In this document: positions 3,489 through 31,266 of the stretch, one piece after another
How the letters are laid out: each line of letters starts with the position of its first letter
Position numbering within the stretch: the stretch's first letter is position 1
Assembly: GCA_041940305.1 (NCBI GenBank)
Contig: JBGTSJ010000007.1
Location: 1-64,000, forward strand
Direction of reading: 5' to 3'
Length of the DNA stretch: 64,000 nucleotides
Origin: Planctomycetaceae bacterium
Lineage (GTDB): Bacteria; Planctomycetota; Planctomycetia; Planctomycetales; Planctomycetaceae
Translations under genes and position numbers: made by a program
Notes under the pieces: model-generated
Told to the model about the DNA's origin: nothing
What the model saw: only the letters and a program-made list of their open reading frames with translations
Databases searched by the model: none

Positions 3489-3650
3489 GGAACAGGAGGA
3501 AACGGAGGGAACAGAGGAGTTAAAGTTGCTCAGGCCATTCGATGGGGCTGGATCACCGGCGACTGGCGGCGCAATTCAAGAAACCAGGCAGTAGCCAATC
3601 TGGTGAACCCACGGACGGAATCTTCTCCGTTTCCTCTGTTTCCTCCTGTC
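3489..3650. repeat. Family-4 element: a 30-bp inverted pair of the triple 9-mer motif GAACAGGAGGAAACGGAGGGAACAGAGGAG flanking about 100 bp, between the Rieske and cyt b genes
   Basis: Left arm 3489-3519 (GA-rich on the + strand). Right arm 3625-3650 (CTCCGTTTCCTCTGTTTCCTCCTGTC). On the minus-strand mRNA the CU-rich copy sits about 40 nt upstream of the cyt b AUG. Confidence 0.8.
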
Positions 3651-3666
3651 AGGCCCTTTCGTCACT

Positions 3667-4263
3667 TCAAATCGGCACTCGTTCCTGTATGCCCGCCCGG
3701 TACTTCTGGTACTTGACCCAGACCATGTCGTTCTCGTCCACCCTGCACTCCAGTGAGTCCATGTCGCGCGGCGGAACGTTGTTGGTGCGCTCGCCGGTCA
3801 GGCTGAACGCGCTCTCATGGCACGGACAAACAAACTGCTGCTTTTCCCCTTCGTACTTCACGGTGCACCCCAGGTGCGGGCAGCGCGAGTTGAAGCAACT
3901 GATCTCGTCCCCGTTCTGCTGCAGGTAGACCGATCCCACTTCAGCGTCCGGAAACTTGTTCCAGAAGTCCTGAACGTCGGCGATCACCTTGAACGAACGC
4001 GGCGACCCGTCCGCCGCCAGCGCGGCTTTAGGGGCAATCCGGATGTACCCGTCCGGATCGATCGCGTCTCCCGTCATGCCGACGGCCCGCTTCTTCCGGG
4101 TGAGCGGATCGAGGAAGAACATTACGGCCGCGCCCAGCGGCACGAATCCCACGGTCGAACCGACCACAAACGCCACCGCGCGGCTGAGGAAGCCGCGCCG
4201 CGGCAGCGTGCTGATCTCCTGCGACTCCGGAGCGGGAGGGCGCGGTTTGGATGAATCCTTCAT
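3667..4263 (-). CDS. Rieske [2Fe-2S] iron-sulfur subunit of the cytochrome bc-type complex
   Basis: The Rieske boxes CPHLGC...CPCHES are present with an N-terminal TM anchor. The internal ATG at 4263 (MKDSSKPRPP...) is preceded by AAGGGAG. The gene sits immediately upstream of the cyt b/c gene on the same strand, as an operon. Confidence 0.88.
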   Translation of the reverse strand: MKDSSKPRPPAPESQEISTLPRRGFLSRAVAFVVGSTVGFVPLGAAVMFFLDPLTRKKRAVGMTGDAIDPDGYIRIAPKAALAADGSPRSFKVIADVQDFWNKFPDAEVGSVYLQQNGDEISCFNSRCPHLGCTVKYEGEKQQFVCPCHESAFSLTGERTNNVPPRDMDSLECRVDENDMVWVKYQKYRAGIQERVPI

Positions 4264-4451
4264 AGGTGGACTCCCTTGCGGGTGATGGATCGCCTGCTGT
4301 GCCGACGCGCCAGGCTGCGGTGCCCGCAATAGCGGGTGGGCCAATGACCGTCGGCTTGGATCTCTGAGGCCGCCGCAGCCGTTCCGCGGGAGCGGAAACC
4401 GCCGGGCGATGGGGTGGGACGTTTCTCAGGAGGGATTGCCGGTCGCCGCAC

Positions 4452-5447
4452 TCAAACCGTTGTGGCGTCCAGCGACGTCTGCATGGCTTTGAGGACGCTC
4501 GACTGCGCGCTCGCCAGCGGTCCGGGCAAAGTTGCTCCGGCCGCCTGCTTGTGGCCCCCTCCGCCGAACTGCTCGGCGATGCGGGCCACGTTCACCGGGC
4601 CGCGGCTGCGGAAGCTGGCCTTGATCTGACCCGTCCGCTGCTCCACCAGGATGAACGCGCATTCCACCCCGTCGACGCGCAGACAATCGTTGACGAGGTC
4701 TTCCGTGTCCGTAGGATGAGCTCCGGTCTCACCGTAATCCTTCATCAGTACGAACGTGTGTCCTAGCCGTCCGCCAAACTCAAACTGAATCCGGCTCAAC
4801 ACCAGGGAATGCAGCTTCAGCCGGGCGGCCGACGAGCGCTCGTACAACTCTCGATATAGTACGTTTGGCCGCGCACCACCGTCAATCAGCCGCGCTGCAG
4901 TCCGCAGTGTGCGGCTGTCAGTATTCGAGAACCGGAACCAGCCGGTGTCCGTTGCGATGGCGCAGAACAGGGCGTCAGCCGCGTGTCCCGTCGGCTGAAC
5001 TCCGAGGAACTCCGCCAGCTCCGTAATCAGCACACCGGTCGCCGAGGCGGAGACGTCCTTGAATTCGGTGGCTCCCAGGTCGTCGCCGCTCACGTGGTGA
5101 TCGATCACCACCTTCCGGGCGGCGGTCTGCTTGAGGACCTGATCGACATCGGGAAGCTGCTGCCAGGCGCTGGTGTCCACCACGACGTGCACGTCCACAT
5201 CCAGCGCCTCTTCGACGCTGATGCCGTCCTTCAGCTTGCGGACGCGCCCTTCCGGATCAAGAAACTCGATATGCTTCGCGGCTGCCGACGGATTGGCGAT
5301 CCGTACCGACTTGCCGAGCGATTCGAGTACCGACAGCAGTCCCAGTTCGGAGCCGATCGCATCCGCATCGGGCCGCACATGGCTGGAGATCAGGAACCGC
5401 TCTCCGGCGTCGATGATCTTGCGGAGCGGCGTCCAGTCGAGCGGCAT
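4452..5447 (-). CDS. nrnA: DHH/DHHA1 phosphoesterase, NrnA-like oligoribonuclease / pAp phosphatase
   Basis: DHH motifs are present: SHVRPDADAIGS, VVDTS and VIDHHVSGDD. The DHHA1 GGGH motif (EQFGGGGHKQAAGA) is also present. The ATG at 5447 is preferred; GTG 5471 is the alternative. Confidence 0.82.
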   Translation of the reverse strand: MPLDWTPLRKIIDAGERFLISSHVRPDADAIGSELGLLSVLESLGKSVRIANPSAAAKHIEFLDPEGRVRKLKDGISVEEALDVDVHVVVDTSAWQQLPDVDQVLKQTAARKVVIDHHVSGDDLGATEFKDVSASATGVLITELAEFLGVQPTGHAADALFCAIATDTGWFRFSNTDSRTLRTAARLIDGGARPNVLYRELYERSSAARLKLHSLVLSRIQFEFGGRLGHTFVLMKDYGETGAHPTDTEDLVNDCLRVDGVECAFILVEQRTGQIKASFRSRGPVNVARIAEQFGGGGHKQAAGATLPGPLASAQSSVLKAMQTSLDATTV

Positions 5448-5739
5448 GATTTCTCCGTTTCCGGTTTGCACGATTCTCCGGCGAGCCTCGCAGACTTCGC
5501 CGATGGATTGCGTTGCAGCATACCGGACCGGCCGGCGTCTGTCTCTGTTCGCCGGGCGGCTGTGCGGTCAACTGAGGCGTGGACCGGCCGCGCACTGCCT
5601 GCGCAGCTGCAAGTCGGTGCGACCTCGACCTCGCCAACCGCGAGTTGTCGGCAGTCGTGTCGTTCCTCCAATGAGCCTCAGCGTCCGGGGCCGGCCCCAT
5701 CGAGGATTCGCCGCGGGGGAGGATCGACCGGTTCAGCAC

Positions 5740-6687
5740 TCAGGCCGACAGTTCATCGCGCGCCCGCTCCAGCATCGTTTTCGTGCGACGGATGCCCTCG
5801 TACTCGTCGAGCTGGCCACCCTCGTACTCGATGCCGACGTAGCCGCGATACCCGGCATCCACCACGATCTTCATCATCTTGAGGTAGTCGATCTCGCGTT
5901 CTCCGGCGGTCGTGACGAGCGGACGGTCCTCGGGGAAGTCGTACGATTTCGCGCTCACGGCCTGGGCGAACGGCATGAGTTCCTCGACGCCTTTGTAGAC
6001 GTCGTACCACTCGCCGTTGCCGAGGTTGAAGTTGCCAAAGTCGGGGAGCGTGCCGCAGTGCGGGTGATCGACACGGCGCATCACGGACGCCAGCCATTCG
6101 CCGTTGGAAGAGAGGCCGCCGTGGTTCTCGACGATGACGTTGAGCTGATGGTCTTCGGCGAAGAGCGTGAGAGCGTGGAGTCCGTCGGCGGCGAGAGCGA
6201 GCTGCTCCTCGTACGTGCCACTGCTGGCCGCGTTGACGCGGATGGAGTGGCAGTTGAGGAAGGCGGCGGCTTCGACCCACTTCTTATGGTTGTCCACGGC
6301 CTCGCGACGCTTGGCCTCGTCGGGATCGCCAAGATGTCCCTCGCCGTCGCACATGATCAGCAGGCTGCGGACGCCGTGGTCCTCGCAGCGCTGCTTCATG
6401 TCCGCCAGGTACCCCTGGTCCTTCGCCTTGTCCTTGAAGAACTGGTTGACGTACTCGACCGCATCGATCCCGAATTCCTCCTTCGCCGTCTTCGCGAAGT
6501 CGAGGTGGTCCAGCTTGCCGCCGAAGATCTCCTTGTTGAGCGACCATTCCGCGAGAGAGATCATGTACAGCGGGTCTTTGTCCGCGGCGCGGGCGGAAAG
6601 ACCTGCGGCGGACAGGGATGCGGCGCCGGCGAGCGCGGCGGATGTCTGCAGGAAGTCGCGACGGTTGTATTGGGCGGGCATGGACAC
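5740..6687 (-). CDS. Sugar phosphate isomerase/epimerase (xylose-isomerase-like TIM barrel) with a Tat signal peptide
   Basis: The N-terminus RRDFLQTSAALAGAASLSAAGLSA is a twin-arginine signal. The body is a TIM-barrel AP-endonuclease-2 / xylose-isomerase-like fold (...IRVNAASSGTYEEQLALAADGLHALTLFAEDHQLNVIVENHGG...). Confidence 0.8.
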   Translation of the reverse strand: MSMPAQYNRRDFLQTSAALAGAASLSAAGLSARAADKDPLYMISLAEWSLNKEIFGGKLDHLDFAKTAKEEFGIDAVEYVNQFFKDKAKDQGYLADMKQRCEDHGVRSLLIMCDGEGHLGDPDEAKRREAVDNHKKWVEAAAFLNCHSIRVNAASSGTYEEQLALAADGLHALTLFAEDHQLNVIVENHGGLSSNGEWLASVMRRVDHPHCGTLPDFGNFNLGNGEWYDVYKGVEELMPFAQAVSAKSYDFPEDRPLVTTAGEREIDYLKMMKIVVDAGYRGYVGIEYEGGQLDEYEGIRRTKTMLERARDELSA

Positions 6688-6779
6688 GATCCTGTGGGGT
6701 GGCTCGGTGCGGTTGTGAGGATTCCAACATCATCGAGAACCAGCGGCAAGTCAATCGCATACTGCTCGGCGAAAGGGTT

Positions 6780-6929
6780 GAACAGGAGGAAACAGAGGCA
6801 ACGGAGATTCGTTGAGTGGGAAGCCGGCGGCGAATCCACCGCTGCATGAAGAGATAGTGCAAGCGACCAACCATTCGGCCTTGACGCGACAGACCCTCCT
6901 CCTCTGTTCCCTCCGTTTGCTCCTGTTCC
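6780..6929. repeat. Family-4 element: inverted pair of the same motif in the divergent isomerase/yqiJ intergenic region
   Basis: GAACAGGAGGAAACAGAGGCAACGGAG at 6780-6806 and CCTCCTCCTCTGTTCCCTCCGTTTGCTCCTGTTCC at 6895-6929. Each divergent transcript would carry the CU-rich version in its leader. Confidence 0.8.
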
Positions 6930-7105
6930 ACTTCCCCCAACCGCAAAATCGGCACGGACCTTCGAATAGTTCTCACCCGCAAACTTGCGTCCGCGGGTCG
7001 ATTTTTGTGATCCGATCGGACCGGGTTGCGTTTCCCCGGCGGACTGCCCGGAGGCGTGTTGCATATTGTCAACAGACCCAGGAGGGGGCGAAAGCGAGGC
7101 GGGCG

Positions 7106-7723
7106 ATGATGGATATTCTTCAGCAGTGGTTCTCGTGGCCGACACTGCCGTTCTCAGTGTTGTTGACGGCGGTAGTTGGCTACTGGCTGATGGTGATTGT
7201 CGGCGCGTTTGACCTCGACTTTCTGGACTTCGACCTGGACGTCGAACCCGGCCTGGACGGCCACGAATCGGTGTTTGACTGGGGCCTGGTCGGCCTCAGG
7301 TGGTTCAACCTCGGCGATGTGCCGTTGATGGTGTGGGTCAGCGCGTTCGCACTGCCGGCGTGGCTGGCATCGACCGCATTCGACAAGCGACTGGCGGACC
7401 CGACAACGCAGGAGATCATCGTCGCGGTGCTGCGGGACATCGGCATCGGCCTGGTGGCGGCGAAAGTCATCACCACGCCGCTGAAAGGCAAACTCAAACT
7501 GGTCGAGCCGAACCTCGTGGAAGACATGATCGGCCGGTCCTGCGTGATAACCAGCCTGCAGGCGACGCCTGACTTCGGACAGGCCCAATGTCAGGCCGAG
7601 GGAGCACCGTTAATGCTCAACGTCCGGGCGGTCGAGGGAGCGATCCCCAAAGGAGAACGAGCCGAAATCGTCGACTACTCCGCCGAACAGCGGGTGTACT
7701 TCGTACGCAGCCAGTCGGTTTAG
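7106..7723 (+). CDS. YqiJ-like inner-membrane protein with a C-terminal NfeD-type OB-fold (DUF1449-like)
   Basis: About 206 aa. It has N-terminal TM helices with an acidic loop (DLDFLDFDLDVEPGLDGHE) and a C-terminal beta-rich segment, GRSCVITSLQATPDFGQAQCQAEGAPLMLNVRAVEGAIPKGERAEIVD. The ATG at 7106 is preceded by GGAGGGGG. A flotillin gene follows immediately, matching the yqiJ-yqiK arrangement. Confidence 0.62.
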   Translation: MMDILQQWFSWPTLPFSVLLTAVVGYWLMVIVGAFDLDFLDFDLDVEPGLDGHESVFDWGLVGLRWFNLGDVPLMVWVSAFALPAWLASTAFDKRLADPTTQEIIVAVLRDIGIGLVAAKVITTPLKGKLKLVEPNLVEDMIGRSCVITSLQATPDFGQAQCQAEGAPLMLNVRAVEGAIPKGERAEIVDYSAEQRVYFVRSQSV

Positions 7724-7744
7724 AACCCATCACTGAAAAAGAGA

Positions 7745-7825
7745 GGCCACGGATGACGCGGATTGGACGGATTCACGCAGATCAGATCCGCGTAAATCCG
7801 TCCAATCCGCGTCATCTGCGGCCCC
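7745..7825. repeat. Family-1 palindromic element, copy A, 81 bp
   Basis: GGCCACGGATGACGCGGATTGGACGGATT-CACGCAGATCAGATCCGCGTA-AATCCGTCCAATCCGCGTCATCTGCGGCCCC, a near-perfect hairpin about 30 bp long between yqiJ-like and flotillin. Confidence 0.9.
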
Positions 7826-7879
7826 TTTGAAACGAATCAGCCAATCCCATCTCACGAGTTCTGACTCGGGCTTGAAACC

Positions 7880-9964
7880 ATGGAATACATCGTCGGCGGT
7901 ATCATCGGTCTGTTCATCCTCTTCGGCCTGCTGATCCTGATCTCGCGGTTCTACCGCAAGGTCGGCCCGGAAGAGGCGCTGATCATTACCGGCGTCGGCG
8001 GACTGCGGGTCGCCACCGGGCGCGGGACGATCGTGATTCCGATCGCTCACCGCGCGGAGCAGATGGACCTGTCGGTCAAGCGGATCGAGATCGCCCGCCG
8101 CGGCGAGTCGGGACTGATCTGCCGCGACAACATCCGGGCCGATATCGAGGTCGCGTTCTTCGTCCGCGTGAACAACACGCGCGAGGACATTCTGCAGGTG
8201 GCTCAGTCACTGGGCTGCCGTCGGGCGAGCGAGCACCAGGCACTGGTCGAACTGTTCGACGCCAAGTTCTCCGAGGCCCTGAAGACCGTCGGCAAGCACT
8301 TCGATTTCGTCGACCTCTACACTGAGCGGGACAAGTTCAAGGACGAGATTCTCAAGCACATCGGGACAGACCTCAACGGCTACATTCTCGACGACTGCGC
8401 GATCGACTACCTCGAGCAGACGCCAGTCGAGAAGCTGAGCGCGAACAACATCCTCGACGCCGAGGGTATCAAGAAGATCACCGAGTTGACGGCCCGAGAG
8501 CACGTCCGCTCGAACGAGATCACGCGCGAAAAAGAGAAGACGATCAAGAAGCAGGACGTCGAGGCGCAGGAAGCGATCCTGGAGCTGGAGAAGCAGCGCG
8601 TCGAGGCGGTCGAGAAGCAGAAGCGGGAGATCGCGGAGATCACGGCCCGCCAGCACGCCGAGGCGGCCAAGGTGCAGCAGGAAGAGCGGCTCAAGTCGGA
8701 ACGGGCCCGCATCACGACCGAGGAAGAGGTGGAGGTCGCGACGCAGAACAAGGACCGCCAGGTCATTGTTGCACAGCGAAACAAGGAACGCACCGACGCC
8801 GTCGAGCGCGAACGCGTGGAGAAGGACCGGCAGCTCGAAGTGACCGAGCGCGAGCGGATCGTCGGCCTCGCCCAGATCGACAAGGAAAAGGCGATCGAAG
8901 TCGAGAAGCGGAACATCCAGGAGGTGATCCGCGAACGGGTGACCGTCGAACGGACGGTGGTCGAAGAACAGCAGAAGATCAAGGACACCGAGGAGTTCGC
9001 CACGGCGGACCGCGAGAAGCAGGTCAAGATCACGCTCGCCGAGATGGCGGCCCAGGAGTCGTTGGTCAAAGAGATCAAGGCAGCCGAGGCGGCCAAGCAG
9101 TCGGCCGAATTCGTGGCTCAGCAGATGGTGATCGAAGCCGAGGCGGAGCGGCAGGCGGCCGAGAAGCAGACTGCGGCCAAGAAAATGCTGGCCGAGGCTG
9201 TGCAGGCCGAGACCGCCGCCACCGGACTCGCCGAAGCGCAGGTGATCCTCGCAAAGGCCGATGCCACCGAGAAGCAGGGAACGGCCGAAGCGGTCGTCAT
9301 CCAGAAGAAGCTGGTTGCCGAAGCCGAAGGTCATAAGGCGAAGGCGGACGCCGTCCAGAAGCTGGGCCTGGCGGAAGCCGACGTCATGCACCAGAAGTTC
9401 TCCGCCGAAGCCCGCGGCATCGAGGAGAAGGCCGAAGCGATGAAGCTGTTCGACGGCGTGGGCCGCGAGCACGAAGAGTTCAAGCTGCGGCTGAACAAGG
9501 ACAAGGACATCGAGATTGCCGCGATCTCCGCGCAGGAAGAGATCGCCAAGAGCCAGGCGGACATCGTCGGCAAGGCGCTGCAGACGGCCCGCATCGACAT
9601 CGTCGGCGGCGAGACGGAGTTCTTCGACAAGATTGTCGACTCGGTCAAAGCCGGCAAGGCGGTCGACCGCTGGGTCTACAACAGCGACGTGTTGAGCGAC
9701 GTGAAGAACACGTTCTTCAACGGCGAGTCGAACGGCGACTTCCGCTCGAGCCTCAGAAAGTTCACGGACCACTTCGGGATGAGCTTCGAGGACGTGAAAG
9801 ACATGACCGTCACGGCCCTGCTGGCGAAGTTCATGCTGCAGGCCGACGACGACGCGACGACCAGCGCACTCAAACGACTGCAGCGCGTGGTGCAGTCAGC
9901 GGGAGTCAGCGACAAGAAGGTGGCGTCCCTGGGAATCGGGGCGGCGGAGCAGTCGCATGCTTGA
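7880..9964 (+). CDS. Flotillin / SPFH (band-7) family protein, YqiK-like
   Basis: 694 aa. N-terminal TM anchor MEYIVGGIIGLFILFGLLILISRFYRKVGPEEALIITG. An SPFH domain and a long E/A/K/Q-rich coiled-coil flotillin repeat region follow. Confidence 0.9.
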   Translation: MEYIVGGIIGLFILFGLLILISRFYRKVGPEEALIITGVGGLRVATGRGTIVIPIAHRAEQMDLSVKRIEIARRGESGLICRDNIRADIEVAFFVRVNNTREDILQVAQSLGCRRASEHQALVELFDAKFSEALKTVGKHFDFVDLYTERDKFKDEILKHIGTDLNGYILDDCAIDYLEQTPVEKLSANNILDAEGIKKITELTAREHVRSNEITREKEKTIKKQDVEAQEAILELEKQRVEAVEKQKREIAEITARQHAEAAKVQQEERLKSERARITTEEEVEVATQNKDRQVIVAQRNKERTDAVERERVEKDRQLEVTERERIVGLAQIDKEKAIEVEKRNIQEVIRERVTVERTVVEEQQKIKDTEEFATADREKQVKITLAEMAAQESLVKEIKAAEAAKQSAEFVAQQMVIEAEAERQAAEKQTAAKKMLAEAVQAETAATGLAEAQVILAKADATEKQGTAEAVVIQKKLVAEAEGHKAKADAVQKLGLAEADVMHQKFSAEARGIEEKAEAMKLFDGVGREHEEFKLRLNKDKDIEIAAISAQEEIAKSQADIVGKALQTARIDIVGGETEFFDKIVDSVKAGKAVDRWVYNSDVLSDVKNTFFNGESNGDFRSSLRKFTDHFGMSFEDVKDMTVTALLAKFMLQADDDATTSALKRLQRVVQSAGVSDKKVASLGIGAAEQSHA

Positions 9965-9972
9965 TCGAAAGA

Positions 9973-10056
9973 GGGGCCACTGATGACGCGGATCTGGCGG
10001 ATTCTCGCGGATAGAATCTGCGTAAATCCGCGTCATCCGTACCATCTGCGGCCCCC
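9973..10056. repeat. Family-1 palindromic element, copy B (left boundary of GxxExxY cassette 1)
   Basis: GGGGCCACTGATGACGCGGATCTGGCGGATTCTCGCGGAT...AATCTGCGTAAATCCGCGTCATCCGTACCATCTGCGGCCCCC. Confidence 0.9.
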
Positions 10057-10073
10057 TTTGACGGGAGACTCCT

Positions 10074-10496
10074 ATGCCCAGCGACAAGCTCCTCCACGCC
10101 GACCTCACCGACGCGATCATCAAGTCGTTCTATCACGTCTACAACACGCTCGGCTTCGGCTTCCTCGAAAAGGTCTACGAGAACTCGATGGCAATCTCGC
10201 TGAGAAACGCCGGCCTGTTCGTCGTGCCCCAGATGCCGGTGGAGGTGTACTTCGAGAAACTGCGGGTCGGCACCTACTGCGCGGACCTGCTGGTTTCGAA
10301 CCTGGTCATCGTCGAGATCAAATCCGTCGAGAACCTGCACCCCGCACACGAGGCTCAGCTGATCAACTACCTGAAAGCCACTGATATCGAAGTCGGCCTG
10401 CTGCTCAACTTTGGCGAGAAACCTGAGTTCCGGCGCAAGGTTTTCAGCAACGAACGCAAGCAGCACCGAGTCGTCCCCAAAGGAGACCACGGATGA
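10074..10496 (+). CDS. GxxExxY family protein (PD-(D/E)XK nuclease-like fold)
   Basis: The motif G-F-L-E-K-V-Y-E-N is present. It is a paralog of ORF 56988..57449 with a shared core: ...ADL(I/L)V...V(I/V)VE(I/L)KS(V/A)E...HEAQL(I/V)NYL(K/R)ATDIEVGLLLNFG.KP...RKVF(S/T)N. The last codons (...VPKGDHG*) are encoded inside the right-hand palindromic repeat. Confidence 0.78.
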   Translation: MPSDKLLHADLTDAIIKSFYHVYNTLGFGFLEKVYENSMAISLRNAGLFVVPQMPVEVYFEKLRVGTYCADLLVSNLVIVEIKSVENLHPAHEAQLINYLKATDIEVGLLLNFGEKPEFRRKVFSNERKQHRVVPKGDHG

Positions 10497-10564
10497 CGCA
10501 GATGACGCGGGTTCTCGCTGATCCGCGAAAATCCGCCAGATCCGCGCCATCCGCGGTCCCCCCT
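10486..10564. repeat. Family-1 palindromic element, copy C (right boundary of GxxExxY cassette 1)
   Basis: ACCACGGATGACGCAGATGACGCGGGTTCTCGCTGATCCGCGAAAATCCGCCAGATCCGCGCCATCCGCGGTCCCCCC. Confidence 0.9.
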
Positions 10565-10567
10565 TGA

Positions 10568-13500
10568 ATGCCCGATCCCACTCCCCAACCCGATGCCGCT
10601 CCGCAGCTGGAAGGCGGCACTTATGAGATCATCCGCAACCGGTTGCGGGGGTACGGGGAGGAGCTGCGCGCGCGACTGTCGCGGCTGAACGCGGCGCGGA
10701 AGGATGTCTTCGGGTCGATCGACGTCAAGCTGCTGGCGACCGAGCGGATCACGACGGAGCACAACTGTGTCCCGCGGGATATGGCGGCCGTCGGGGACCG
10801 GTTTCTGTTCGGGTACAACGTGCACTTCGGGCTGAAAACCGAGCGGCACATCGCCGACGTCTTCGCTGCATATGAGTTCCGGCGTCCCGGCGGTGAGAGC
10901 GGCGAAGCTTCTGCAGAGGCCCACGGGTTGCAGCCGGTAGGCTTCGATGTGCTGGGTCTCAACGACCCGCGGTTCGAGAAGGACCTGCAGGACGTTTACC
11001 GTTACTACAAGAACGCCACGTTCGCGCAGTTCGTGCATCGCGGGCCGCACCTGTTCATGGTGTTTCAGGTCGGCCGCTCGCCGCTGGACGTCAAAACGTT
11101 TAAATGGCTGCTGCGGCCCGAAGGCCTGCAGTATCTCGACAACCGCAGCGACCACGAGGTCCGCCCGCCGCCGCAGCACGAGTTTGAATGGATCCGCTGC
11201 ACGCGCGACATGCATCGGCAGGGAGTTCACCCGCACATCTCTATCGAAGACCGCCTGTTCGTGGAGACAGTCGGCGGCGACCTGACCATCAAGATCGAGA
11301 ACAATACCGACTCGGGGCAGGGGATCTACTCCGAACCGGTCGACAACGCCGACCAGACGCTCGACGACGCCGAGACCTATTACGCGATCGTCGGCAACCT
11401 GATCCTGCTGAAGATCAAGCCGTACCAGGAGGCGCGGTTCCGCTATATCGTCTACAGCGAAAAGATCGAGCAGGCCCGCCGGCTCGACGCCATTGAGCAG
11501 GCGTGCGTGCTGCTGCCCGATGATCACGGGCTCATCTTCTCCAGCGGCTACTTCCTGCAGTCGGGGGAGTACAAGACTTTTGACAGCGCTCATACCGGGC
11601 TGCTGTTTGAGCGGCGGATTGCCAGCCCCAACGGCGAGGACACGCTCTTTGTGTTCCATCAGCCGCAGTCGGGGGATTACGTGCTGCTCGGCTACAACAT
11701 GATCGAGCAGAAGGTCGAGACGCCGGTCGTGTGCAACGGCTTCACGCTGTTTCACGCCGGCGAGATGCTGCAGTTCAAGGTGCAGCCGGAGCCCCAGAAG
11801 CACCACGCCGTGCAGGTCTGGCAGACTCCCTACGTCGGTGAAAACTACGTGCCGCCGACGAACTCCGATTCCTACCTGTACAAGATCGGCAATCGCGACA
11901 TCGTCCGCGGCATGGCCGAATGCCAGGCGATTCTCAAGCTGATCGACAAAGAGGATTCGTACTCCGGCCTGTATGTCGATCTTGTCAAACTGACGACCGA
12001 CGTCCTCGACTCCTACTTCTGGATCGGACACGCGGGGGCCGAGAACCTGGCAGAGCCGCTGGCGCAGATCCGCGACGCCGCGCGATCGGCCGTGGATGAG
12101 TTCGAGAAGGTTGTCCGCGTCCGCAAGAACACTGCCGAACAGACGCAGCAGGTCCAGCAGAAGACGCGGGCTCTGCTGTCGGAAGTGCATCGCGCCCGGT
12201 TCGACGCGATCGACGGCTTCGTGAGATCACTCGCCGGCCTGCGGGGCATCCGCGGTGAGATCATCGGCCTGAAGGAATTGCGGTACGTCGATCTCCCGAC
12301 CGTCGAGGGTCTGGAACAGGAGGTCACTCAGGAGACGGAGCGGCTGTCGCATCGCTGCGTCGAGTTCCTGCTCAGGCCGGATGCACTGCAGCCCTACGCC
12401 GACAAGGTCGCCGATGAGCAGGCGGCGATCGAAGGCCTGCAGAAAGTCAGCGAAGCGAAAAAGCAGGCGGAGCGGATCGGCGCATCGGCGACCGAGCTGG
12501 AGATGCTGATCGAGATCGTCTCGAACCTGAAGATCGACGACGCCACGCAGCGAACCGCCATCATCGACGGCATCTCGGCGGTCTTCACCAAGGTCAACAC
12601 CGCGCGGGCTGCGCTCAAGCGGAAGATGCAGGAGCTGGCTTCGGTCGAAGGGGCGGCCGAGTTCGGCTCACAGCTCAAGCTGCTCAACCAGTCGGTCGTC
12701 AACTTCCTCGACGTCTGCGACGCCCCGCAGAAGTGCGAAGAGTACCTCACCAAGCTGATGGTGCAGGTCGAGGAACTCGAGGGGAAGTTCGCCGAATTCG
12801 ACGAATTCGTGGTCCAGCTCGCCGAGAAGCGGGACGAAATCTACAACGCGTTCGAGACCCGACGGCTGCAGCTGGTCGAAGCCCGCAACAAGCGGGCCGG
12901 CGCCCTTGCGTCCGCGGCCGACCGCATCCTCAAGGGGATCAAGTCCCGCGTCGACGGGCTCGAATCGGTCAACGACATCCACGGCTACTTCGCCGGGGAC
13001 CTGATGATCGAAAAGGTCCGCGACATCGTGCGGCAGCTGGACGGCCTCGGCGACAGCGTCAAGGTGGACGACATCCAGTCGCGGCTGAAGACGATCCGCG
13101 AAGACGCCGTCCGCCAGCTCAAGGACAAGCAGGAGCTGTACGAAGATGGCGAGAACGTTATCAAGTTCGGCAAGCACCGCTTCTCAGTGAATACACAGGT
13201 GCTGGACCTCACCACCGTTCAGCGCGACGGCGACCTCTGCCTGCACCTTACCGGCACCGACTTCTACGAGCCGCTCAACAATCCCGAGATCGACGCCCTC
13301 GATGACGTCCGTGACATGGAAGTCGTCAGCGAGAACCGGGACGTGTACCGCGCCGAGTACCTGGCGTACCAAATCCTGAGCACGGCCCGCACTAACGACG
13401 AGAGCCCGTTTATCCGCGACCCGAAGGGGAGCGCGGCCCCGCGCGATCTCGATTCCCTCACGGCCGAAGTCCAGCGCTTCATGGCCCCGCGCTACAGCGA

Positions 13501-19271: not shown

Positions 19272-19326
19272 ACTCCGACCGCCTCGTCCTTCCTCTTGAC
19301 ACTTTCCGAGGGCCGCTGCTAATCCT

Positions 19327-19360: not shown

Positions 19361-19607
19361 GAGGAGTCCCCCCGGCCCTGGATGTTTCGGCGCCGACTCC
19401 CAAACGGGGTGCATGTCCGGAAGCAGACCGAGCGCCGGTCCCCGGACATCCGTGAGTTATCGATGGCCTCGCATCGAATGTCGGCCGTCCGCCGTCGTAC
19501 CGGCGAAATCGTGCCTCGCAACCCGTATTGACCCCCCGCAGGAAGTGGGGCATAGTTCAGCGGCACTATGCCGCGAGCTGTTCCACTCGCGTTGAGGAGT
19601 CAACGAA

Positions 19608-20435: not shown

Positions 20436-20491
20436 TCGTCCGAGCGCGCCGAGTGACACAAAGCCTAGTCCGGCTGCGATGGACTGTTTCA

Positions 20492-21081: not shown

Positions 21082-21168
21082 TGAAGGATCCTTTGTTCTG
21101 CAATCCGGCCATTATATGGGTCGGCCGCATTGCGCGGAATCCGGAACGCCCTTCCCGAAAGCCACCGC

Positions 21169-22275: not shown

Positions 22276-22316
22276 GTGTTCCTCGCTCAGGTGATGTAGC
22301 CGCACACTGCTAGCCC

Positions 22317-22353
22317 GACGCGCCAGCAAGGGCCGAACGTTGCCGAGCATTGA
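22317..22353. repeat. 36-bp near-identical motif, copy 2
   Basis: AGCCCGACGCGCCAGCAAGGGCCGAACGTTGCCGAGCA, 40-75 nt upstream (minus strand) of the Gfo/Idh/MocA oxidoreductase start. Confidence 0.8.
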
Positions 22354-22411
22354 TCCCTCCAGAAACCCGGCCTCTTCGAGAATCCAGGTTTCCGGAGATG
22401 TCGGCATTCAC

Positions 22412-22440
22412 TCGACCGCTCCCTGCCGGTCGCGGCTCTT
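22412..22440. repeat. Family-3 half-copy, intergenic
   Basis: CGACCGCTCCCTGCCGGTCGCGGCTC matches the reverse complement of the family-3 left arm (CGGGCCGCTCCCTTCCGGTCGCGGCTC). Confidence 0.55.
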
Positions 22441-22557
22441 CAGCGATACGCCGCCAACATAGACGCTCCGCCCCCGGTTGCAAACCACCACGACGTCTGG
22501 GAAATTCAGCGCCAACGAGCGGCGGGGTTCAACCCCGCCGCTCATACGAGAGACACC

Positions 22558-24051
22558 ATGCCGCAACACGTCCCCCCGCTCGATGAATTCCGCCAGCTGG
22601 CGACCCGGTCGCGCCTCGTCCCCATCTACCGTCGCCTCCTCAGCGACACGCTCACCCCGGTCTCGGCTTACTGCTGCATCGCCGACGCCGACAGCTCATT
22701 CCTCTTCGAAAGCGTCGTCGGGGGGGAAAAGGTCGGTCGCTACAGCTTCGTCGGGGCCGATCCGTTCCTGCACTTCGCCGCCACTCGCACCTCGCTCACC
22801 ATCACCGGCCCCGACGGGTCGCACACCCGCGAAGTCGCCGACCCTCTCGCCGAACTCGGCACGCTCCTCGCCGAGTACCCCGCCCCGCATCTTCCCGGGC
22901 TGCCACGATTCAGCGGCGGAGCCGTCGGCTACGCCGGCTACGACGTCGTCCGCTACGCCGAGCATCTTCCCGACGCACCCGAGGACGACCGACAAATCCC
23001 TGACCTGGAGTTCGCCCTCTACGACCGCATGGTCATCTTCGACAACATCAACAAGACGGTCACCATCGTCGTCCACGCCCGGGCCGACGCGCCCGACCTC
23101 GACACCGAATACGGCCGCGCCGTCGAGCGCATCGATGAACTCTGCCGGCGACTCGCATCCGTCCCCGCCGCGCTCAAGCCGCTCGAAGCCCCGCAGCGCG
23201 GCAATCCGGCTCTCGCATTTCAGTCCAACACGACGCAGCCCGAGTTCGAATCCGCCGTCGAGCGCTGCCAGGAGTACATCCGCGCCGGCGACATTTTCCA
23301 GGTCGTGATCAGCCAGCGCCTCCAGCTGGAAACCCGGGCCCGTCCGCTCGATATCTACCGTGCCCTCCGCGTGGTGAATCCCAGCCCCTTCATGTTCCTG
23401 CTCAATACCCCGGACGTCACGCTCGTCGGCAGTTCCCCCGAGATCATGGTTCGCGTCGAAGACGGCGAGACGACGATCCGCCCGCTCGCCGGCACGCGCC
23501 GCCGCGGTGCGACTGAAGCTGAAGACCGCGCCCTTGCCGAAGAGCTGCTGGGCGATCCCAAGGAACGGGCCGAGCACGTGATGCTCGTCGATCTCGCCCG
23601 CAACGACGTCGGCCGCGTCGCTCAATACGGCAGCGTCCGCCTCTCCGACGTCATGCAGGTCGAGCGCTACAGCCACGTGATGCACATCACGTCCAACGTC
23701 AACGGCCTACTCAAGCCCGGCCTCACCTCTCTCGACGCCCTCCGCGCCGGCCTTCCGGCCGGCACGGTCTCCGGCGCGCCGAAAGTCCGAGCCATGGAGA
23801 TCATCGACGAAGTCGAGAAACACCGCCGCGGCCCTTACGGCGGAGCCGTCGGCTACATCGACTTCACCGGCAACATGGATACCTGTATCGCCCTGAGGAC
23901 GCTCGTCATGCAGGACCAGACCGTCTACGTCCAGGCCGGCGCCGGCATCGTGGCCGACAGCGTGCCGGCGAGCGAGTATCAGGAGACGCTGAACAAAGCC
24001 CAGGGGTTGTTGCGGGCGATTGAGGTCGCCGAGTCGTGGAATGATGGGTGA
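22558..24051 (+). CDS. trpE: Anthranilate synthase component I
   Basis: TrpE hallmarks: [65 protein letters not shown]. Confidence 0.9.
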
Positions 24052-24115
24052 ACCGGCAGCGGACGGCGTGAGCCAGTCAGGCGGTCGGTAATCCGTGGGA
24101 ACACGCTCGACAGAC

Positions 24116-24721
24116 TTACGTCTGCCGCTCTCGGTTCGCATCCTTCACGTACCGCCGAAAGACCGTCCGCCCGGCGCCACGCAGGAGCCCGCGGCGCGCC
24201 CCATTGTGCAGCACTCCGAAAGCGAAGAGCAGTAGGGTGGCCGCTCCGACCCAGAGGCGCTGCCGCAGCACATCGTCAGCCGCCACGCGGCGAAACAAAG
24301 GGACGAACCATGCGTCCGCGATCACGGCGTTCGGGGCTTCCGAACTGGTCACGAGGGGATCATATGCGAGTTCTTCGGGGAGTGGAATCACCTCCGCCCC
24401 GGGGGTCGACGCCGCCAGTTCACTCCGCGCCAGCCGTGCGGCGAAGTCGGGATCAGTCTCGAGGGCGTCGGCGACCCGCTGCAGATGCCGGACTTCCCGC
24501 TGGCGTCCGATGAGTTCCGCCTGCCGGGTGCGATGCTCACGGTCCAGATCGGCCCAGATCACCACGCGCGCCGAGAGAGCGCACACGGCGTACATCCCGA
24601 TTGCGGCGAACAGACAGAGCCAAAACAGAAGCGACGTGATCGTCCGTCGCGGCGTCAAGGTGTCCGATTCGGCGGTCATCTCTCCGGCCTCCTGCCGGCT
24701 GGCGACGTCGGGCGATGTCAA
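24116..24721 (-). CDS. ftsB: Septum formation initiator family protein (FtsB/DivIC-like)
   Basis: One TM helix (SLLFWLCLFAAIGMYAVCAL), then a coiled coil and a DPDFAARLARSELA box that resembles the FtsB DPEYIEELAR motif. It lies downstream of eno, as in many bacteria. Confidence 0.5.
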   Translation of the reverse strand: MTSPDVASRQEAGEMTAESDTLTPRRTITSLLFWLCLFAAIGMYAVCALSARVVIWADLDREHRTRQAELIGRQREVRHLQRVADALETDPDFAARLARSELAASTPGAEVIPLPEELAYDPLVTSSEAPNAVIADAWFVPLFRRVAADDVLRQRLWVGAATLLLFAFGVLHNGARRGLLRGAGRTVFRRYVKDANRERQT

Positions 24722-24762
24722 TCGCCGCTGCCCTCTAGATTCAGCCGCAGTCGCCTGTCGGT

Positions 24763-25086
24763 TCAGCCGACGTTTCGCGGTGGATACTGCTGCTCCAGGA
24801 TCGCGTCCAGTGACTCGTACGCTTCGAGGGCATAACCTGTATCGCCGTCATAGAGTTGTGCACGATCCAGAACGTTGCCCGAAATCCTTCCAAATGCGGC
24901 ACAGATGCTATCAGCATCCAGTCCCGACTCGTACGCCCGATTCAGGAACAGGAAAATACAACCATTGATGGCATCCCGGTTGCCGGCGGATTTCTTGAGG
25001 CAATCCGCGGCTTCGATGACGAACGCATAGGCAGGGTGATTCTCATCGATGGCTGCAGTTTCGATCGGACGGGACGAATCGGACAT
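24763..25086 (-). CDS. Hypothetical protein of 107 aa
   Basis: ORF between ftsB-like and eno with normal codon usage and no recognisable motif. Confidence 0.4.
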   Translation of the reverse strand: MSDSSRPIETAAIDENHPAYAFVIEAADCLKKSAGNRDAINGCIFLFLNRAYESGLDADSICAAFGRISGNVLDRAQLYDGDTGYALEAYESLDAILEQQYPPRNVG

Positions 25087-25119
25087 GCCACTGTTCCCCC
25101 CGGGAAGCCGGGCGTTGCT

Positions 25120-26430
<1,311 letters not shown>

Positions 26431-26431
26431 T

Positions 26432-26467
26432 CAGAAACCCGGTTTCTCCGAAGAAACCGGGTTTCTG
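26432..26467. promoter_or_regulatory. Tandem 15-bp palindromes (putative TetR operator) in the divergent eno/tetR intergenic region
   Basis: CAGAAACCCGGTTTCT-CCGA-AGAAACCGGGTTTCTG. Each half is self-complementary around a CCCGG/CCGGG core, and the two halves form a perfect 16-bp inverted repeat. It lies about 185 bp upstream of the tetR start. Confidence 0.5.
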
Positions 26468-26652
26468 CAGCGTGGTTTGTGAGTTTCGCCGGCCGATTTG
26501 TAGCGGAGAACGCCCCCGCTGCCAACTGCGGGTCCGCTCTACAACCGGGAAGCAAGGAGGCACCCCTTCGAAGTTTTGGTGCAGCAACGCTGAGTTTCGG
26601 ACAGACCATTGATTTCCTGAAACCGGCTCAATTCCGCGTGAGTATTACTCAC

Positions 26653-27243
26653 ATGAAATCAGTGCGACGTTACCAGCAGTCAGCTAGAGCGGAGTCCGCT
26701 GCAGCGACCGGGGCTCGTATCGTCGAGGCGTTCCTCATGCGACTCAACGAGCAATGGTACGACGAGATCACACTGGATCAGGTCGCCATAGACGCCTCCG
26801 TAACGGTGCAGACCATCGTGCGGCGTTTTGGAGGCAAAGCCGGGCTGCTCGGCGAGGCAATTCGAGAAATGATTCGCCGCGCCGGGGAACGTCGTGCCGC
26901 TCCGCCGGGCGACCTGAATCAACTCGTCCGAAATCTGGTTGCCGACTATGAGGGGACCGGTGACACGATCATCCGATTACTTGCCGTTGAAGGACGGAAC
27001 GCGGTGCTTCACGAATTCCTCACGCATGCACGCGGCCGGCATCGTGACTGGATCGCGAAGGCGTTTGCAGATGATTTGGAACTGCTCGATGCGGCAGCGC
27101 GGCAGGCAACTCTTGACTCGCTGGTCGTCGCCACCGACGTCTACACATGGAAGCTGCTGCGCCGCGACATGGGTCGCTCCGTGGGTGCGGCTCGGGCTGC
27201 AATCAGCGGGATGATCCGCTCGACACTCGCCGCCTCGAAATAG
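26653..27243 (+). CDS. TetR/AcrR family transcriptional regulator
   Basis: N-terminal HTH ITLDQVAIDASVTVQTIVRRFGGKAGLL, about 196 aa. The annotated ORF start at 26422 reads through the operator palindrome and is rejected. Confidence 0.82.
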   Translation: MKSVRRYQQSARAESAAATGARIVEAFLMRLNEQWYDEITLDQVAIDASVTVQTIVRRFGGKAGLLGEAIREMIRRAGERRAAPPGDLNQLVRNLVADYEGTGDTIIRLLAVEGRNAVLHEFLTHARGRHRDWIAKAFADDLELLDAAARQATLDSLVVATDVYTWKLLRRDMGRSVGAARAAISGMIRSTLAASK

Positions 27244-27265
27244 TTGCTGCAGGGAACGCGCCTGA

Positions 27266-29356
<2,091 letters not shown>

Positions 29357-29407
29357 CGCGACTCTGCAACAGGCGTCCTTGCGTCGGGCATAGCGACCCT
29401 CCGTACC

Positions 29408-31222
29408 TCAGCGGCTCTGCGTCAGAACTCCTTCCGACTGAGTAGCCCGCCGTCCCCCCAACTCGGGCGATGCCGCCACGTCGTCCTGCAGTGCTTCCGC
29501 CGCGGCCCGCAGGACGTCCAGTTCGTTCACGGCGGCCCGCGCCTCTGCACATGCTCGTTCGACGTCCGGGAAGAGGCCGACCGCCAGTTGACGTTGCACC
29601 AGTTCTCCTGCGAGCGCGTGCACTTCCTGCTTGAGACCGCGGCGGAGGCGGCGGACGAAGGCCATCAGGAGGAGGGCGGACCAGAGGAGCAGGAAGAGGA
29701 TGGCGGGCCAGTAGAAGTCGGAGGTGAGCAGAGGCTGGCCGTCGAGCCAGGAGTCGACGAAGAAGTTCCGGCCGACGCGGTAGAGGATGAAGCCGAGGTA
29801 CAGGGTGAACGCGATCTCGTAGAACGCCCGCACCCACCATTTGGAGTTCCGCTCCGCGAGGCGGCCGATGAGGTCGTCGATGCGGCGGCCGGCGTCGCCG
29901 AGGAAGTCCTGCTCGACGTCCGCCGCGCGGCCGCGGAGCTGCGTCAGCGAATGGCCGCCCCCCAGCGACAGGCCGGCCGAGCGGATGTGACCCTGGATCA
30001 CTAGTTCCGTCTCACGGAGCAATGAGTCATCAAGGCAGAACGCGCCTTCCAGTTTCTCTTCGGCTGTGCGCTCGTCCCGCTTGCTCGTCAGCCAGCGGCT
30101 CCCCTGCACGGCCCCGACGAGCGCCATCTGGGCCGCACTCCGGGCGCGATACAGGCTGAACGACGTCAGCAGCGCTCCCAGCCCCTGCCACACGCGCAGC
30201 AGGGCCGAGAACGGGCTGAACCCCCACGTGTCGGCGACGGCCGCCATCAGCCGCCGCTCCCACAGATGACGGCTGCCGAGCAGCTCCCGCTGCAGCTTCG
30301 TCGCCAGCTTCTCGCGGATCGCTCCCTGCTGATGCGCGAGCGCCGTCTCCAGCGGCACCAGGTCGTCCACCCGCGCCGACAGCGTACGGTCGCAGCGCTC
30401 CAGCGATCCGCACAACAGGTCCACCACGTTCGCGCGGCGGATCCGCATGCGTTCTGAGGCCGCGAGTTGCGTGGTGAGCAGGTCCTGCAGTCGGGCCAGG
30501 TCGCCGCTCGGCCGCTGTCCGGCCTGCTGCTCCTTAAGGCCGCGGACGGAGTCGATGAAGAACACATCCGGAATCTCGTAATGCTCGCGGAGCTGTCGCC
30601 GCCAGTCTTCGCGGATGTCCTCATCGAGGTCGGCGTGCGTCTGCACGAACACCAGCCGGCAGCCGGCTGCGGCCTGCCCCAGCTCATCGGCGACACGAGC
30701 GGAGCGGTACTTCTGCTGTGTCGAGACATACACCAGCACGTCGCAGTAGGGGAGCAGTGCGTGCAGCCGGGCGAGATTGCTGCCGGCGGTCTCGGCCTCG
30801 TTCGTATCCGGATCGGGACAATCCAGAATCACCAGGTCCCGCAGCACATCCGTCTCGCGGCGGACGACGTCGAAGTCCTCCAGCGGCAGACCGAGGGCCT
30901 CCAGGTGCGTCTTGGGGTGGGCGATGAGGATCGGCTTCGTCGTCGTGGGGCGTTCGCGCCCGGTGCGCGTGCACTCCTCGCCGACGATCGCATTCACCAG
31001 CGAACTCTTCCCCGTTCCCGTCCCGCCAAACGTGGCCGCCACGATGGGCGCCTCCAGCCGCACGCGCAAAGCATCCACTCGCGACAACGTTCGCCCCACC
31101 AGCGCCTGCGCTTCCTTGAGCGGTTGCCACGCCGTCTCGCGCCGCGACCACTCGGTGGCGCGCGCCGTCAACGCATCCATCCGCGCCAGCATCTCCAACT
31201 GAATCAACTGCGGTTCGGACAT
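29408..31222 (-). CDS. Membrane-anchored dynamin-like P-loop GTPase, paralog 1
   Basis: P-loop ATFGGTGTGKSSLVNAIVG. Switch-II-like ILDCPDPD. VFVQTHADLDED is G4-like. Two C-terminal TM helices (...WPAILFLLLWSALLLMAFV). The start at ATG 31222 (MSEPQLIQLEML) lies just after a leader motif. Confidence 0.68.
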   Translation of the reverse strand: MSEPQLIQLEMLARMDALTARATEWSRRETAWQPLKEAQALVGRTLSRVDALRVRLEAPIVAATFGGTGTGKSSLVNAIVGEECTRTGRERPTTTKPILIAHPKTHLEALGLPLEDFDVVRRETDVLRDLVILDCPDPDTNEAETAGSNLARLHALLPYCDVLVYVSTQQKYRSARVADELGQAAAGCRLVFVQTHADLDEDIREDWRRQLREHYEIPDVFFIDSVRGLKEQQAGQRPSGDLARLQDLLTTQLAASERMRIRRANVVDLLCGSLERCDRTLSARVDDLVPLETALAHQQGAIREKLATKLQRELLGSRHLWERRLMAAVADTWGFSPFSALLRVWQGLGALLTSFSLYRARSAAQMALVGAVQGSRWLTSKRDERTAEEKLEGAFCLDDSLLRETELVIQGHIRSAGLSLGGGHSLTQLRGRAADVEQDFLGDAGRRIDDLIGRLAERNSKWWVRAFYEIAFTLYLGFILYRVGRNFFVDSWLDGQPLLTSDFYWPAILFLLLWSALLLMAFVRRLRRGLKQEVHALAGELVQRQLAVGLFPDVERACAEARAAVNELDVLRAAAEALQDDVAASPELGGRRATQSEGVLTQSR

Positions 31223-31236
31223 GTGACGGAGAGATT

Positions 31237-31266
31237 GAACAGGAGGAAACAGAGGGAACGGAGGAG
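31237..31266 (-). promoter_or_regulatory. Solo family-4 motif in the leader of GTPase paralog 1; CU-rich on the coding strand, 15-45 nt upstream of the AUG
   Basis: On the + strand it reads GAACAGGAGGAAACAGAGGGAACGGAGGAG. The mRNA reads CUCCUCCGUUCCCUCUGUUUCCUCCUGUUC...AUG. Confidence 0.75.

Follow-up and report, generated by a model that had tools for sequence, protein, structure and literature searches.

A dispersed palindromic repeat of tandem nonamers in Planctomycetota and Verrucomicrobiota, and the small GxxExxY genes that adjoin it

The first 64,000 nucleotides of contig JBGTSJ010000007.1 from a Planctomycetaceae bacterium (assembly GCA_041940305.1; this whole stretch is the window hereafter) contain five copies of a motif, family 4, that is GA-rich on one strand and CU-rich on the other. 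These copies are best read as non-autonomous members of a dispersed, non-coding palindromic repeat and as satellites of a system that joins a repeat to a nuclease. The best reading of that system is one like repetitive extragenic palindromes (REPs) and their REP-associated tyrosine transposases (RAYTs), built on a different enzyme. The evidence that carries this reading lies mostly outside the window, where small GxxExxY genes, whose products are predicted to have a PD-(D/E)XK nuclease core, adjoin family-4 arms, also at loci that were chosen blind to the motif. We put the chance at roughly 55% that the nonamer arms are what the GxxExxY nuclease recognises, and that it either creates the dispersed copies or maintains them, with no duplication of the target site. 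Systems that combine an extragenic palindromic repeat and a resident nuclease gene are already known. The repeat grammar, its conservation across phyla and the enzyme superfamily appear to be new: literature searches on Planctomycete and Verrucomicrobial repeats, on the motif and on PF13366 returned no description of family 4 or of the association between gene and repeat, and what came near was only a survey of GTAG/CGTC REPs and a catalogue of PD-(D/E)XK proteins.

Anatomy and distribution of the repeat

The five copies reported in the initial annotation are real. A degenerate two-unit pattern recovered all five arms with 10 overlapping matches in the window where 0.68 were expected, the originally proposed 30-mer matched three sites with up to three mismatches (0.00 expected, 100 shuffles), and a profile built from relatives elsewhere returned exactly these five arms at E<=2e-6. 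Their corrected coordinates are given in Table 1. Every one of them is intergenic with respect to genes mapped by codon-position G+C and Pfam (the G+C content of the window is 61-68%). The two inverted pairs are also real, with arms that are 83-86% complementary and 95-102 nt apart; pair A lies within the Rieske/cytochrome b (cyt b) spacer and pair B in the divergent spacer between a TIM-barrel gene and a membrane-protein gene. The description as a non-random element in inverted pairs able to form stems of about 30 bp holds, and the predicted RNA folds of the pairs (-62 to -72 kcal/mol, z about -3) are dominated by the paired arms. The two arms of each pair belong to two subtypes, one with ...GGGAACRGAGGAG and one with ...GAGGMAACGGAGA followed by (A)GATTC (3613-3632 and 6799-6814), which forms a small local hairpin with its own inner flank. 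Such heterodimers recall the Y and Z REP types of bacterial interspersed mosaic elements (BIMEs).

The arm of about 30 nt consists of three tandem nonamers with the blocks ACAGGAG, AAC-R-GAG and AAC-R-GAG, and the usual element is TTGA-ACAGGAGNAAACRGAGGNAACRGAG, a short spacer and then the reverse complement. The outer ends read TTGA-ACAGG...CCTGT-TCAA, or TTTT-ACAGG...CCTGT-AAAA in the Verrucomicrobial copies. Most spacers between arms measure 6-30 nt, and a tail of longer ones extends past 100 nt, which places the window pairs at the long end; typical short-spacer copies have predicted folds of -30 to -53 kcal/mol (z -5 to -10). Neighbouring arms up to 130 nt apart have a fixed polarity, with the GA-rich arm first in 104 cases, the CT-rich arm first in 13 and a direct arrangement in 14; at 131-600 nt the three arrangements are equally frequent, that is, random. 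Apart from local tandem duplicates, different copies have unrelated interiors, and no shared cargo was found in long interiors.

The blocks ACAGGAG, AAC, GAG, AAC and GAG are each 95-100% conserved, and arm positions 8, 9, 13, 17, 18 and 22 vary freely. At these six positions the left arm agrees with the complemented right arm as often as expected by chance. Over 75 arm pairs, 85.1% of the cells are paired, compared with 84.1% after shuffling, and the internal variable columns are unpaired in 30-53% of the elements. Covariation is limited to the outermost, lineage-specific columns, and sense transcripts from tandem-gene spacers have no bias of G.U over A.C (46 vs 38, p=0.45). The maintained feature is thus the primary sequence of each arm and not base pairing, which argues against an RNA selected for its structure and for recognition by a protein.

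A broader arm pattern, with only 2 chance-like matches in 636 kb of unselected Planctomycete DNA, located three additional diverged arms in the window that had been missed (Table 1). Two of them form a pair downstream of cyt b, next to a 120-aa gene that starts at ATG 1315 on the minus strand, and arms related to the 'GAAG' variant occur in the same spacer downstream of cyt b in L120, L121, L122, L123 and L237 (71-98% cyt b identity; L numbers denote collected loci). The third lies 437 nt from the single family-4 arm, within the range where arms are arranged at random, so that the two need not be a true pair. Between them, a 115-aa ORF (open reading frame; 31287-31634, minus strand) encodes two hydrophobic segments; its third-position G+C is 0.61, compared with 0.80-0.88 in its neighbours, and its Pfam matches are weak only.

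A scan of species-representative genomes with the pattern GGAGNAAACRGAGGNAACRGAG found at least 119 stretches, of which we estimate, from the specificity of the pattern and the size of the collection, that about four are chance matches. Among the matches listed, almost all come from Planctomycetota and Verrucomicrobiota, both cultured and uncultured, with a few metagenome-assembled genomes (MAGs) of Acidobacteriota and Gemmatimonadota; isolates that carry family 4 include Aeoliella (Pirellulales), Horticoccus (Opitutales) and Luteolibacter (Verrucomicrobiales). Carriers with complete genomes are Aeoliella sp. SH292 (NZ_CP197417.1), Luteolibacter sp. Populi (NZ_CP161812.1) and the Opitutales with chromosomes L268 and L269. 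Matches in low-GC or unrelated taxa are coding GGAGGAAACGGAGG runs without the ACAGGAG prefix and without a partner arm. High-GC IMG/VR contigs contain up to five arms per ~10 kb, and on the phage-like contig L215 the tail assembly chaperone gene is immediately preceded by a hairpin and the tape measure gene immediately followed by an arm (tail genes verified with PHROGs). BLAST searches with arm and hairpin gave one chance match against plasmids and none against cultured phages. Between related lineages the distribution is patchy: no arm was found in 80 Planctomycete contigs (637 kb) fetched through the TIM-barrel protein in a metagenome scan, compared with 8-9 in the window. The TIM-barrel relatives are only 50-69% identical, which makes this set an unselected control and not a collection of orthologous empty sites.

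Family 4 is also present or absent between close relatives, as the Rieske-cyt b spacer illustrates. The pair is found in L120 (98% cyt b identity) and in L122 (87%), where the arms are identical to those of the window and the interior is only 50% identical; coding DNA is 84-89% identical between the window and L122, and the stretch from arm to start codon 80%. L121 (88%) has no family-4 pair in this spacer, and its cyt b keeps a GGGAG Shine-Dalgarno sequence; in L123 (72%) the spacer is 90 nt long and without the element. The spacer measures 222 nt in the window compared with 81-137 nt in relatives without the element. In L121 the same spacer (1875-2011) harbors, in place of the family-4 pair, a GTAG-tagged REP dimer (GTAGGCGACTCGCTCCGCGAGTCGC plus an inverted copy). 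Positions 1-9000 of the window are 100% identical to L238 (GCA_041941145.1, contig JBGTQU010000086.1), L120 is a strain with 97.8% identity, and among named organisms the nearest by cyt b are the Planctomycetaceae Maioricimonas (66%) and Caulifigura (64%).

The elements are almost all intergenic, and not equally frequent inside genes. Counted with ORFs of at least 150 aa, pairs occupy 41 tandem, 6 convergent and 10 divergent spacers, which is roughly the background. Clustering of neighbour proteins over 119 loci revealed no recurrent family beyond WD40 proteins, sigma-54 activators, ABC ATPases and sulfatases. Around 81 pairs, at offsets of 0-25 and lengths of 2-9, direct repeats that would mark a target-site duplication were not in excess, scans for sigma-70 promoters and terminators around the elements gave nothing above chance, and no T-run follows the stems.

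Longer palindromes of other tandem nonamers (AGGCACAGA, AACGCAGAT, CACGGATGA, CCACAACCAT) enclose family-4 hairpins in Verrucomicrobial loci and in some from Planctomycetes (L104:1130-1270, L077:770-900, L080:5170-5320, L101, L063, L112). In a Haloferula MAG (L055:250-1000), a whole family-4 element with its flank is repeated five times in tandem with a period of ~153 nt. Scaffold gaps (runs of N) occur inside the hairpins of L251 (~1410-1420) and L255 (~875-885).

GxxExxY genes and their repeats

A screen of the genes between successive elements led to L068:7180-7581, which encodes a 133-aa PF13366 (PDDEXK_3)/TIGR04256 'GxxExxY' protein. One family-4 hairpin precedes the start codon of this gene by 18 nt, and a second follows the stop codon by 26 nt. 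An iterative homology search among the ORFs of the collected loci and of the window added four homologues: one in L055, two in the window (10074-10496 and 57027-57449) and one on a low-GC viral contig. The L055 gene is located directly downstream of the five-fold family-4 array, with only one of its sides on the contig. As an independent test we took three loci (P0122, P0200 and P0166) from a protein search with L068, with contig number as the only criterion and blind to the motif. Their proteins are 77-80% identical to that of L068, and all three genes have family-4 arms or hairpins 7-75 nt from both start and stop; in P0166 these are a lone arm 51 nt upstream and, downstream, three hairpins in tandem. 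The loci have different neighbourhoods (two sulfatase genes; HAD and RCC1/WD40; NUDIX and helix-turn-helix), are non-redundant over 2.8 kb each and contain 17 arms in total. The genes examined comprise only five of the family-4 type and two of the window type. All five of the former adjoin family-4 arms, four of them on both sides. A protein database search returned 5,788 relatives of the L068 subfamily at E<=1e-10; most of the close homologues (P0121-P0240) come from contigs 0.5-3 kb long.

D72 and E82-x-K84 are invariant in the GxxExxY alignment, and an AlphaFold model of moderate confidence (pLDDT 65) has a PD-(D/E)XK core in the order alpha-beta-beta-beta-alpha-beta. Its best neighbours in the PDB, all weak (best E 1.4e-3), are Cas4 SSO0001, lambda exonuclease, RecE and Hjc. 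With the Cas4, lambda exonuclease, RecB-family and Hjc enzymes the GxxExxY proteins share the predicted core and the D...E-x-K motif; however, at 133-140 aa they are far smaller than these enzymes and do not have the cysteines of the Fe-S cluster. A sequence search of the PDB found no solved relative, and PADLOC gave only faint Cas4-like matches. A 2012 survey of the PD-(D/E)XK superfamily listed the function of PF13366 as 'Unknown' and noted many lateral transfers (PMC3424549).

The two GxxExxY genes of the window encode paralogues that are 29-31% identical to the L068 type and are not associated with family 4. Both (2/2) are flanked by arms of another nonamer family, ACGCRGATN, and the protein subfamily and the flanking nonamer family thus correspond. 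ACGCRGATN forms a second, more abundant palindromic family (15 matches in the window vs 0.24 expected) with tandem-nonamer arms and the same purine-arm-first polarity as family 4. Most copies are found 14-30 nt past the stop codons of tandem genes, and outside the window the family occurs in the Verrucomicrobial loci L060 and L086 and in the Planctomycete locus L102. The gene at 57027-57449, with a purine-type arm on one side and the complement of that arm on the other, resembles a gene enclosed by terminal inverted repeats.

Table 1. Features of the window. For repeat arms, the column 'Strand' names the GA-rich strand.
Feature	Position	Strand	Remarks
Family-4 arm, pair A	3490-3519	+	GAACAGGAGGAAACGGAGGGAACAGAGGAG, GA-rich on +; promoter-distal partner of pair A
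Pair A interior, 102 nt	3520-3621	.	variable; without conservation relative to pair B interior
Family-4 arm, pair A	3622-3651	-	begins 15 nt past Rieske gene stop (3667)
Family-4 arm, pair B	6780-6806	+	92 nt from TIM-barrel gene start (6687, minus strand)
Pair B interior	6807-6898	.	variable
Family-4 arm, pair B	6899-6928	-	178 nt upstream of ATG 7106
Single family-4 arm	31237-31266	+	14 nt upstream of ATG 31222
Degenerate variant arm	1359-1383	+	ACAGCAGGTGATAAAGGAAACAAAG; partner of 1464-1488; 43 nt before ATG 1315
'GAAG' variant arm	1464-1488	-	ACAGAAGGTCGCGAAGGCAACGAAG; 30 nt past cyt b stop (1519)
'GAAG' variant arm	31701-31725	-	ACAGAAGGCCGCCAAGGGAACGAAG; 50 nt past EamA gene stop (31776)
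Cyt b/c fusion gene	1519-3444	-	start GTG 3444
Rieske gene	3667-4344	-	5' neighbour of pair A in operon
TAT-signal xylose-isomerase-like TIM-barrel gene	5740-6687	-	
205-aa membrane-protein gene	7106-7723		ATG 7106; first annotated as yqiJ-like
Dynamin/GTPase-like gene	29408-31222	-	ATG 31222
GxxExxY PD-(D/E)XK gene, not family 4	10074-10496	+	ACGCRGATN hairpins 9982-10051 upstream and 10488-10556 overlapping stop
Second GxxExxY gene, not family 4	57027-57449	+	purine-type ACGCRGAT arm 56967-57006, complementary arm 57448-57487
ACGCRGATN sites	7742-7826, 9982-10051, 10488-10556, 34861-35097, 45929-45944, 56967-57006, 57448-57487, 59440-59593		

In the mechanism that we propose, the fuller unit, found outside the window, is the small PD-(D/E)XK GxxExxY gene bracketed by family-4 hairpins. 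The nuclease, probably as an oligomer, would read the nonamers of the arms, which are spaced by ~9-10 bp, and would generate or maintain solitary intergenic copies without target-site duplication; each GxxExxY paralogue would have its own nonamer family. The data show how the repeat is built and distributed, that it has neither covariation nor target-site duplications, and that it is associated with the gene; we infer that the nuclease binds and cleaves the arms and that the repeats are mobile. Transcribed copies could fold to long interrupted hairpins, and an effect at the RNA level, if there is one, may be an incidental change in mRNA stability or processing, for example between Rieske and cyt b.

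This architecture of GxxExxY gene and nonamer arms is that of the REPtron or the TIRtron (PMC3733652). In REPtrons, REP/BIME or REPIN sequences are combined with a RAYT transposase of the Y1 HUH type (Bertels & Rainey 2011, PMC3116915; Di Nocera 2013, PMC3733652). Like these, family 4 is a high-copy extragenic repeat that occurs as singlets or as inverted pairs with short variable spacers, has no target-site duplications, is patchy between lineages and brackets a small nuclease-type gene with its own copies. However, the family-4 arm is unlike a REP in that it is not itself a stem-loop and has neither self-complementarity nor a GTAG/CGTC tag; it is made of three tandem nonamers and is conserved across two phyla, whereas REPs are conserved within a genus. 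Its spacers are not conserved within a genome, unlike those of REPINs, and the bracketed gene belongs to PD-(D/E)XK (PF13366) and not to the Y1 HUH enzymes. No Y1-like ORF was found in any locus by weak tests (an IS200 TnpA sequence and HUH/Y regular expressions). TIRtrons are RAYT-like genes flanked by long inverted repeats that are also dispersed (Di Nocera 2013, PMC3733652). Family 4 shares with them a gene flanked by inverted repeats of a moderately abundant dispersed family, often present as dimers; the enzyme family and the repeat sequence are different, and the GGGGWSAS motif is absent.

The Correia elements of Neisseria and other miniature inverted-repeat transposable elements (MITEs) are short, non-coding and intergenic, with terminal inverted repeats of ~26-30 bp, and are co-transcribed as hairpins that affect mRNA; they have target-site duplications and a conserved core, whereas family 4 has neither. 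In 2008, Elhai and coworkers reportedly described, in cyanobacteria, short heptamer repeats in tandem (STRR) and small dispersed repeats that are nested within palindromes. Family 4 resembles STRR as intergenic palindromes of short tandem units and in its nesting (L104, L077 and L080), but unit length and sequence differ, and we know of no nuclease partner described for STRR. Two tandem heptamer arrays in the window recall STRR more directly: CTGACCT x10.7 at 38646-38722 and GAGGTCA/GAGGGCA x20 at 54751-54899. Further short-unit palindromes are present at 34933-34996 (CGCTAAT-type nonamers) and 49970-50072 (GA-rich, GGAGAGAG-type).

Alternative explanations

Several observations weigh against the proposal that the nuclease creates or maintains the repeats. 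No GxxExxY gene of the family-4 type is located within the window, so that the five copies are linked to the nuclease by family membership only. The PF13366 relatives on viral contigs are few, low in GC and without flanking inverted arrays; the association with repeats is therefore not universal in PF13366. Arms within one genome have 5.31 differences at 11 variable sites compared with 6.18 across phyla, which argues against recent bursts from a master copy, and copies within one genome have different spacers, whereas the members of typical REPIN populations are copied as whole units. In L122 the arms stayed identical as the interior drifted, which agrees no less well with purifying selection in place, for a host function, than with selfish spread. 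The ORF calls behind the context statistics are crude. Finally, the direction of the association between gene and repeat could be reversed, so that the gene targets the hairpins. If this were the case, then the hairpins would pre-exist in the host and a selfish, homing-like GxxExxY gene would insert into them, with a nuclease that neither creates nor spreads the repeats. This is the main rival. Some insertion sequences are known to insert into REP sequences, and the window gene at 57027-57449 lies between an arm and its complement as if it had been inserted into the interior of a long-spacer pair. GxxExxY genes occur in unrelated neighbourhoods, PF13366 has undergone many horizontal transfers (PMC3424549), and orthologous arms are conserved in place. 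However, homing leaves unexplained why the arm sequence is conserved across phyla without covariation and why arms are totally absent from element-free lineages, and in L068, L248 and L258 the hairpins are complete on both sides of the gene and not split by it. We consider this explanation unlikely.

An RNA hairpin selected by the host, acting as an intercistronic mRNA stabiliser, a processing site (e.g., for RNase III) or a factor-dependent terminator, would account for the stable folds of the short-spacer copies, for the position of pair A inside the Rieske-cyt b operon just past a stop codon and for the copies between phage tail genes, and it best explains why the arms in L122 are perfectly conserved in place. 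Such a role may be a secondary effect. As the primary constraint it is disfavoured and rather improbable, as the variable positions do not covary and are mismatched in up to about half of the elements, the sense strand has no excess of G.U, no T-run follows the stems, copies also occur in divergent spacers, the close relative L121 does without the element, and a mere hairpin would not need a primary sequence conserved across phyla. The conservation of sequence rather than structure, the spacing of the AAC-R-GAG blocks by ~9-10 bp and the strict arm polarity would also be expected of duplex-DNA site arrays for a conserved host protein unrelated to GxxExxY, which could for example be nucleoid-associated, an insulator or the receptor of an uptake signal. 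This seems quite improbable, as the distance from arm to arm ranges from 6 to >100 nt with no preferred phase, the distribution is patchy between related lineages, the copies share no neighbour gene or regulon, and the specific bracketing of GxxExxY genes would be unaccounted for.

Of the three options in the initial annotation, a MITE with terminal inverted repeats came closest. A classical MITE, moved by a DDE transposase through recognition of the 30-bp repeats, would agree with the arm polarity and with a dispersed, intergenic element of 60-170 bp, but there is no target-site duplication at any tested offset or length, interiors are unrelated between copies, no transposase was found between long-spaced arms, and the flanking dinucleotide in most copies is AA/TT and not TA. 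We regard this form of the idea as very improbable, and the same holds for a CU-rich 5' leader that controls translation from the downstream start codon, which is largely refuted. The rule that had suggested a leader, a CU-rich strand 15-120 nt upstream of a start codon, is correct for cyt b (45 nt from GTG 3444 in the minus-strand mRNA, arm 3490-3519), the TIM-barrel gene (92 nt) and the GTPase-like gene (14 nt). It fails for arm 6899-6928, which is 178 nt away, and for arm 3622-3651, which faces the 3' end of a gene: pair A lies between the Rieske stop and the cyt b start, so that no start codon lies downstream of this arm on its CU-rich strand. Four of the five arms thus have the CU-rich strand 14-178 nt upstream of a start, and the arm does contain CCUCC, which resembles an anti-Shine-Dalgarno sequence; however, the G of GGAGG is among the variable positions. 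The rule itself is a geometric outcome of the palindrome. A GA-arm-first order is the same on both strands, so that the arm nearest to any downstream gene is always CU-rich in the mRNA of that gene. Single arms in tandem-gene spacers, by comparison, are unoriented with respect to start codons (the CU-rich strand is the coding one 21 times and the GA-rich strand 17 times). Elements also occupy 3'-3' spacers verified with Pfam, between M56 peptidase and acyl-CoA synthetase-GNAT genes in L034 and between a TonB-like gene and IMPDH in L087, and L121 lacks the element where its cyt b has its own Shine-Dalgarno sequence.

Other candidates were rejected. The outer ends of the element (TTTGAAC/GTTCAAA or TTTTAC/GTAAAA) are not those of integron attC sites (RYYYAAC/GTTRRRY), and the copies are scattered among housekeeping genes without a cassette array. 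Intrinsic terminators would require a T-run after the arms, and the elements also stand in divergent spacers. The window has no gathering-level match to an Rfam family, and at E<=10 only generic miRNA-hairpin noise. Inversion of the interior, as in an inverton, is not indicated, as the interior in the window aligns with that of L122 with the same weak score in forward and in reverse orientation. Readings as CsrA-, extracytoplasmic-function (ECF) promoter-, parS-, attC- or uptake-sequence-like elements disagree with the conserved positions or with the architecture.

Implications

We tentatively extend the proposal beyond family 4, at odds somewhat short of even. GxxExxY proteins may be the trans-acting partners of a superfamily of nonamer-coded palindromes (family 4, the GAAG variant and ACGCRGATN), with each paralogue reading its own arm. 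This would be a second, independently evolved partnership between repeat and nuclease, analogous to REPIN-RAYT but with another fold, in Planctomycetota and Verrucomicrobiota and probably also in Acidobacteriota and Gemmatimonadota.

The runs of N in hairpins and the short contigs that carry GxxExxY genes suggest that family-4 repeats break short-read metagenome assemblies. In the genomes that carry them, the hairpins lengthen intergenic spacers such as the one between Rieske and cyt b, and they may alter the expression of operons, for example that of the cytochrome bc complex. If the proposed role of the nuclease is correct, then PF13366/TIGR04256, a large family, would gain a testable function, and the way of life of REP and RAYT, a resident nuclease gene with palindromic satellites, would have arisen more than once with different folds. 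The paralogue-specific nonamer 'code' suggests a modular system of DNA recognition.

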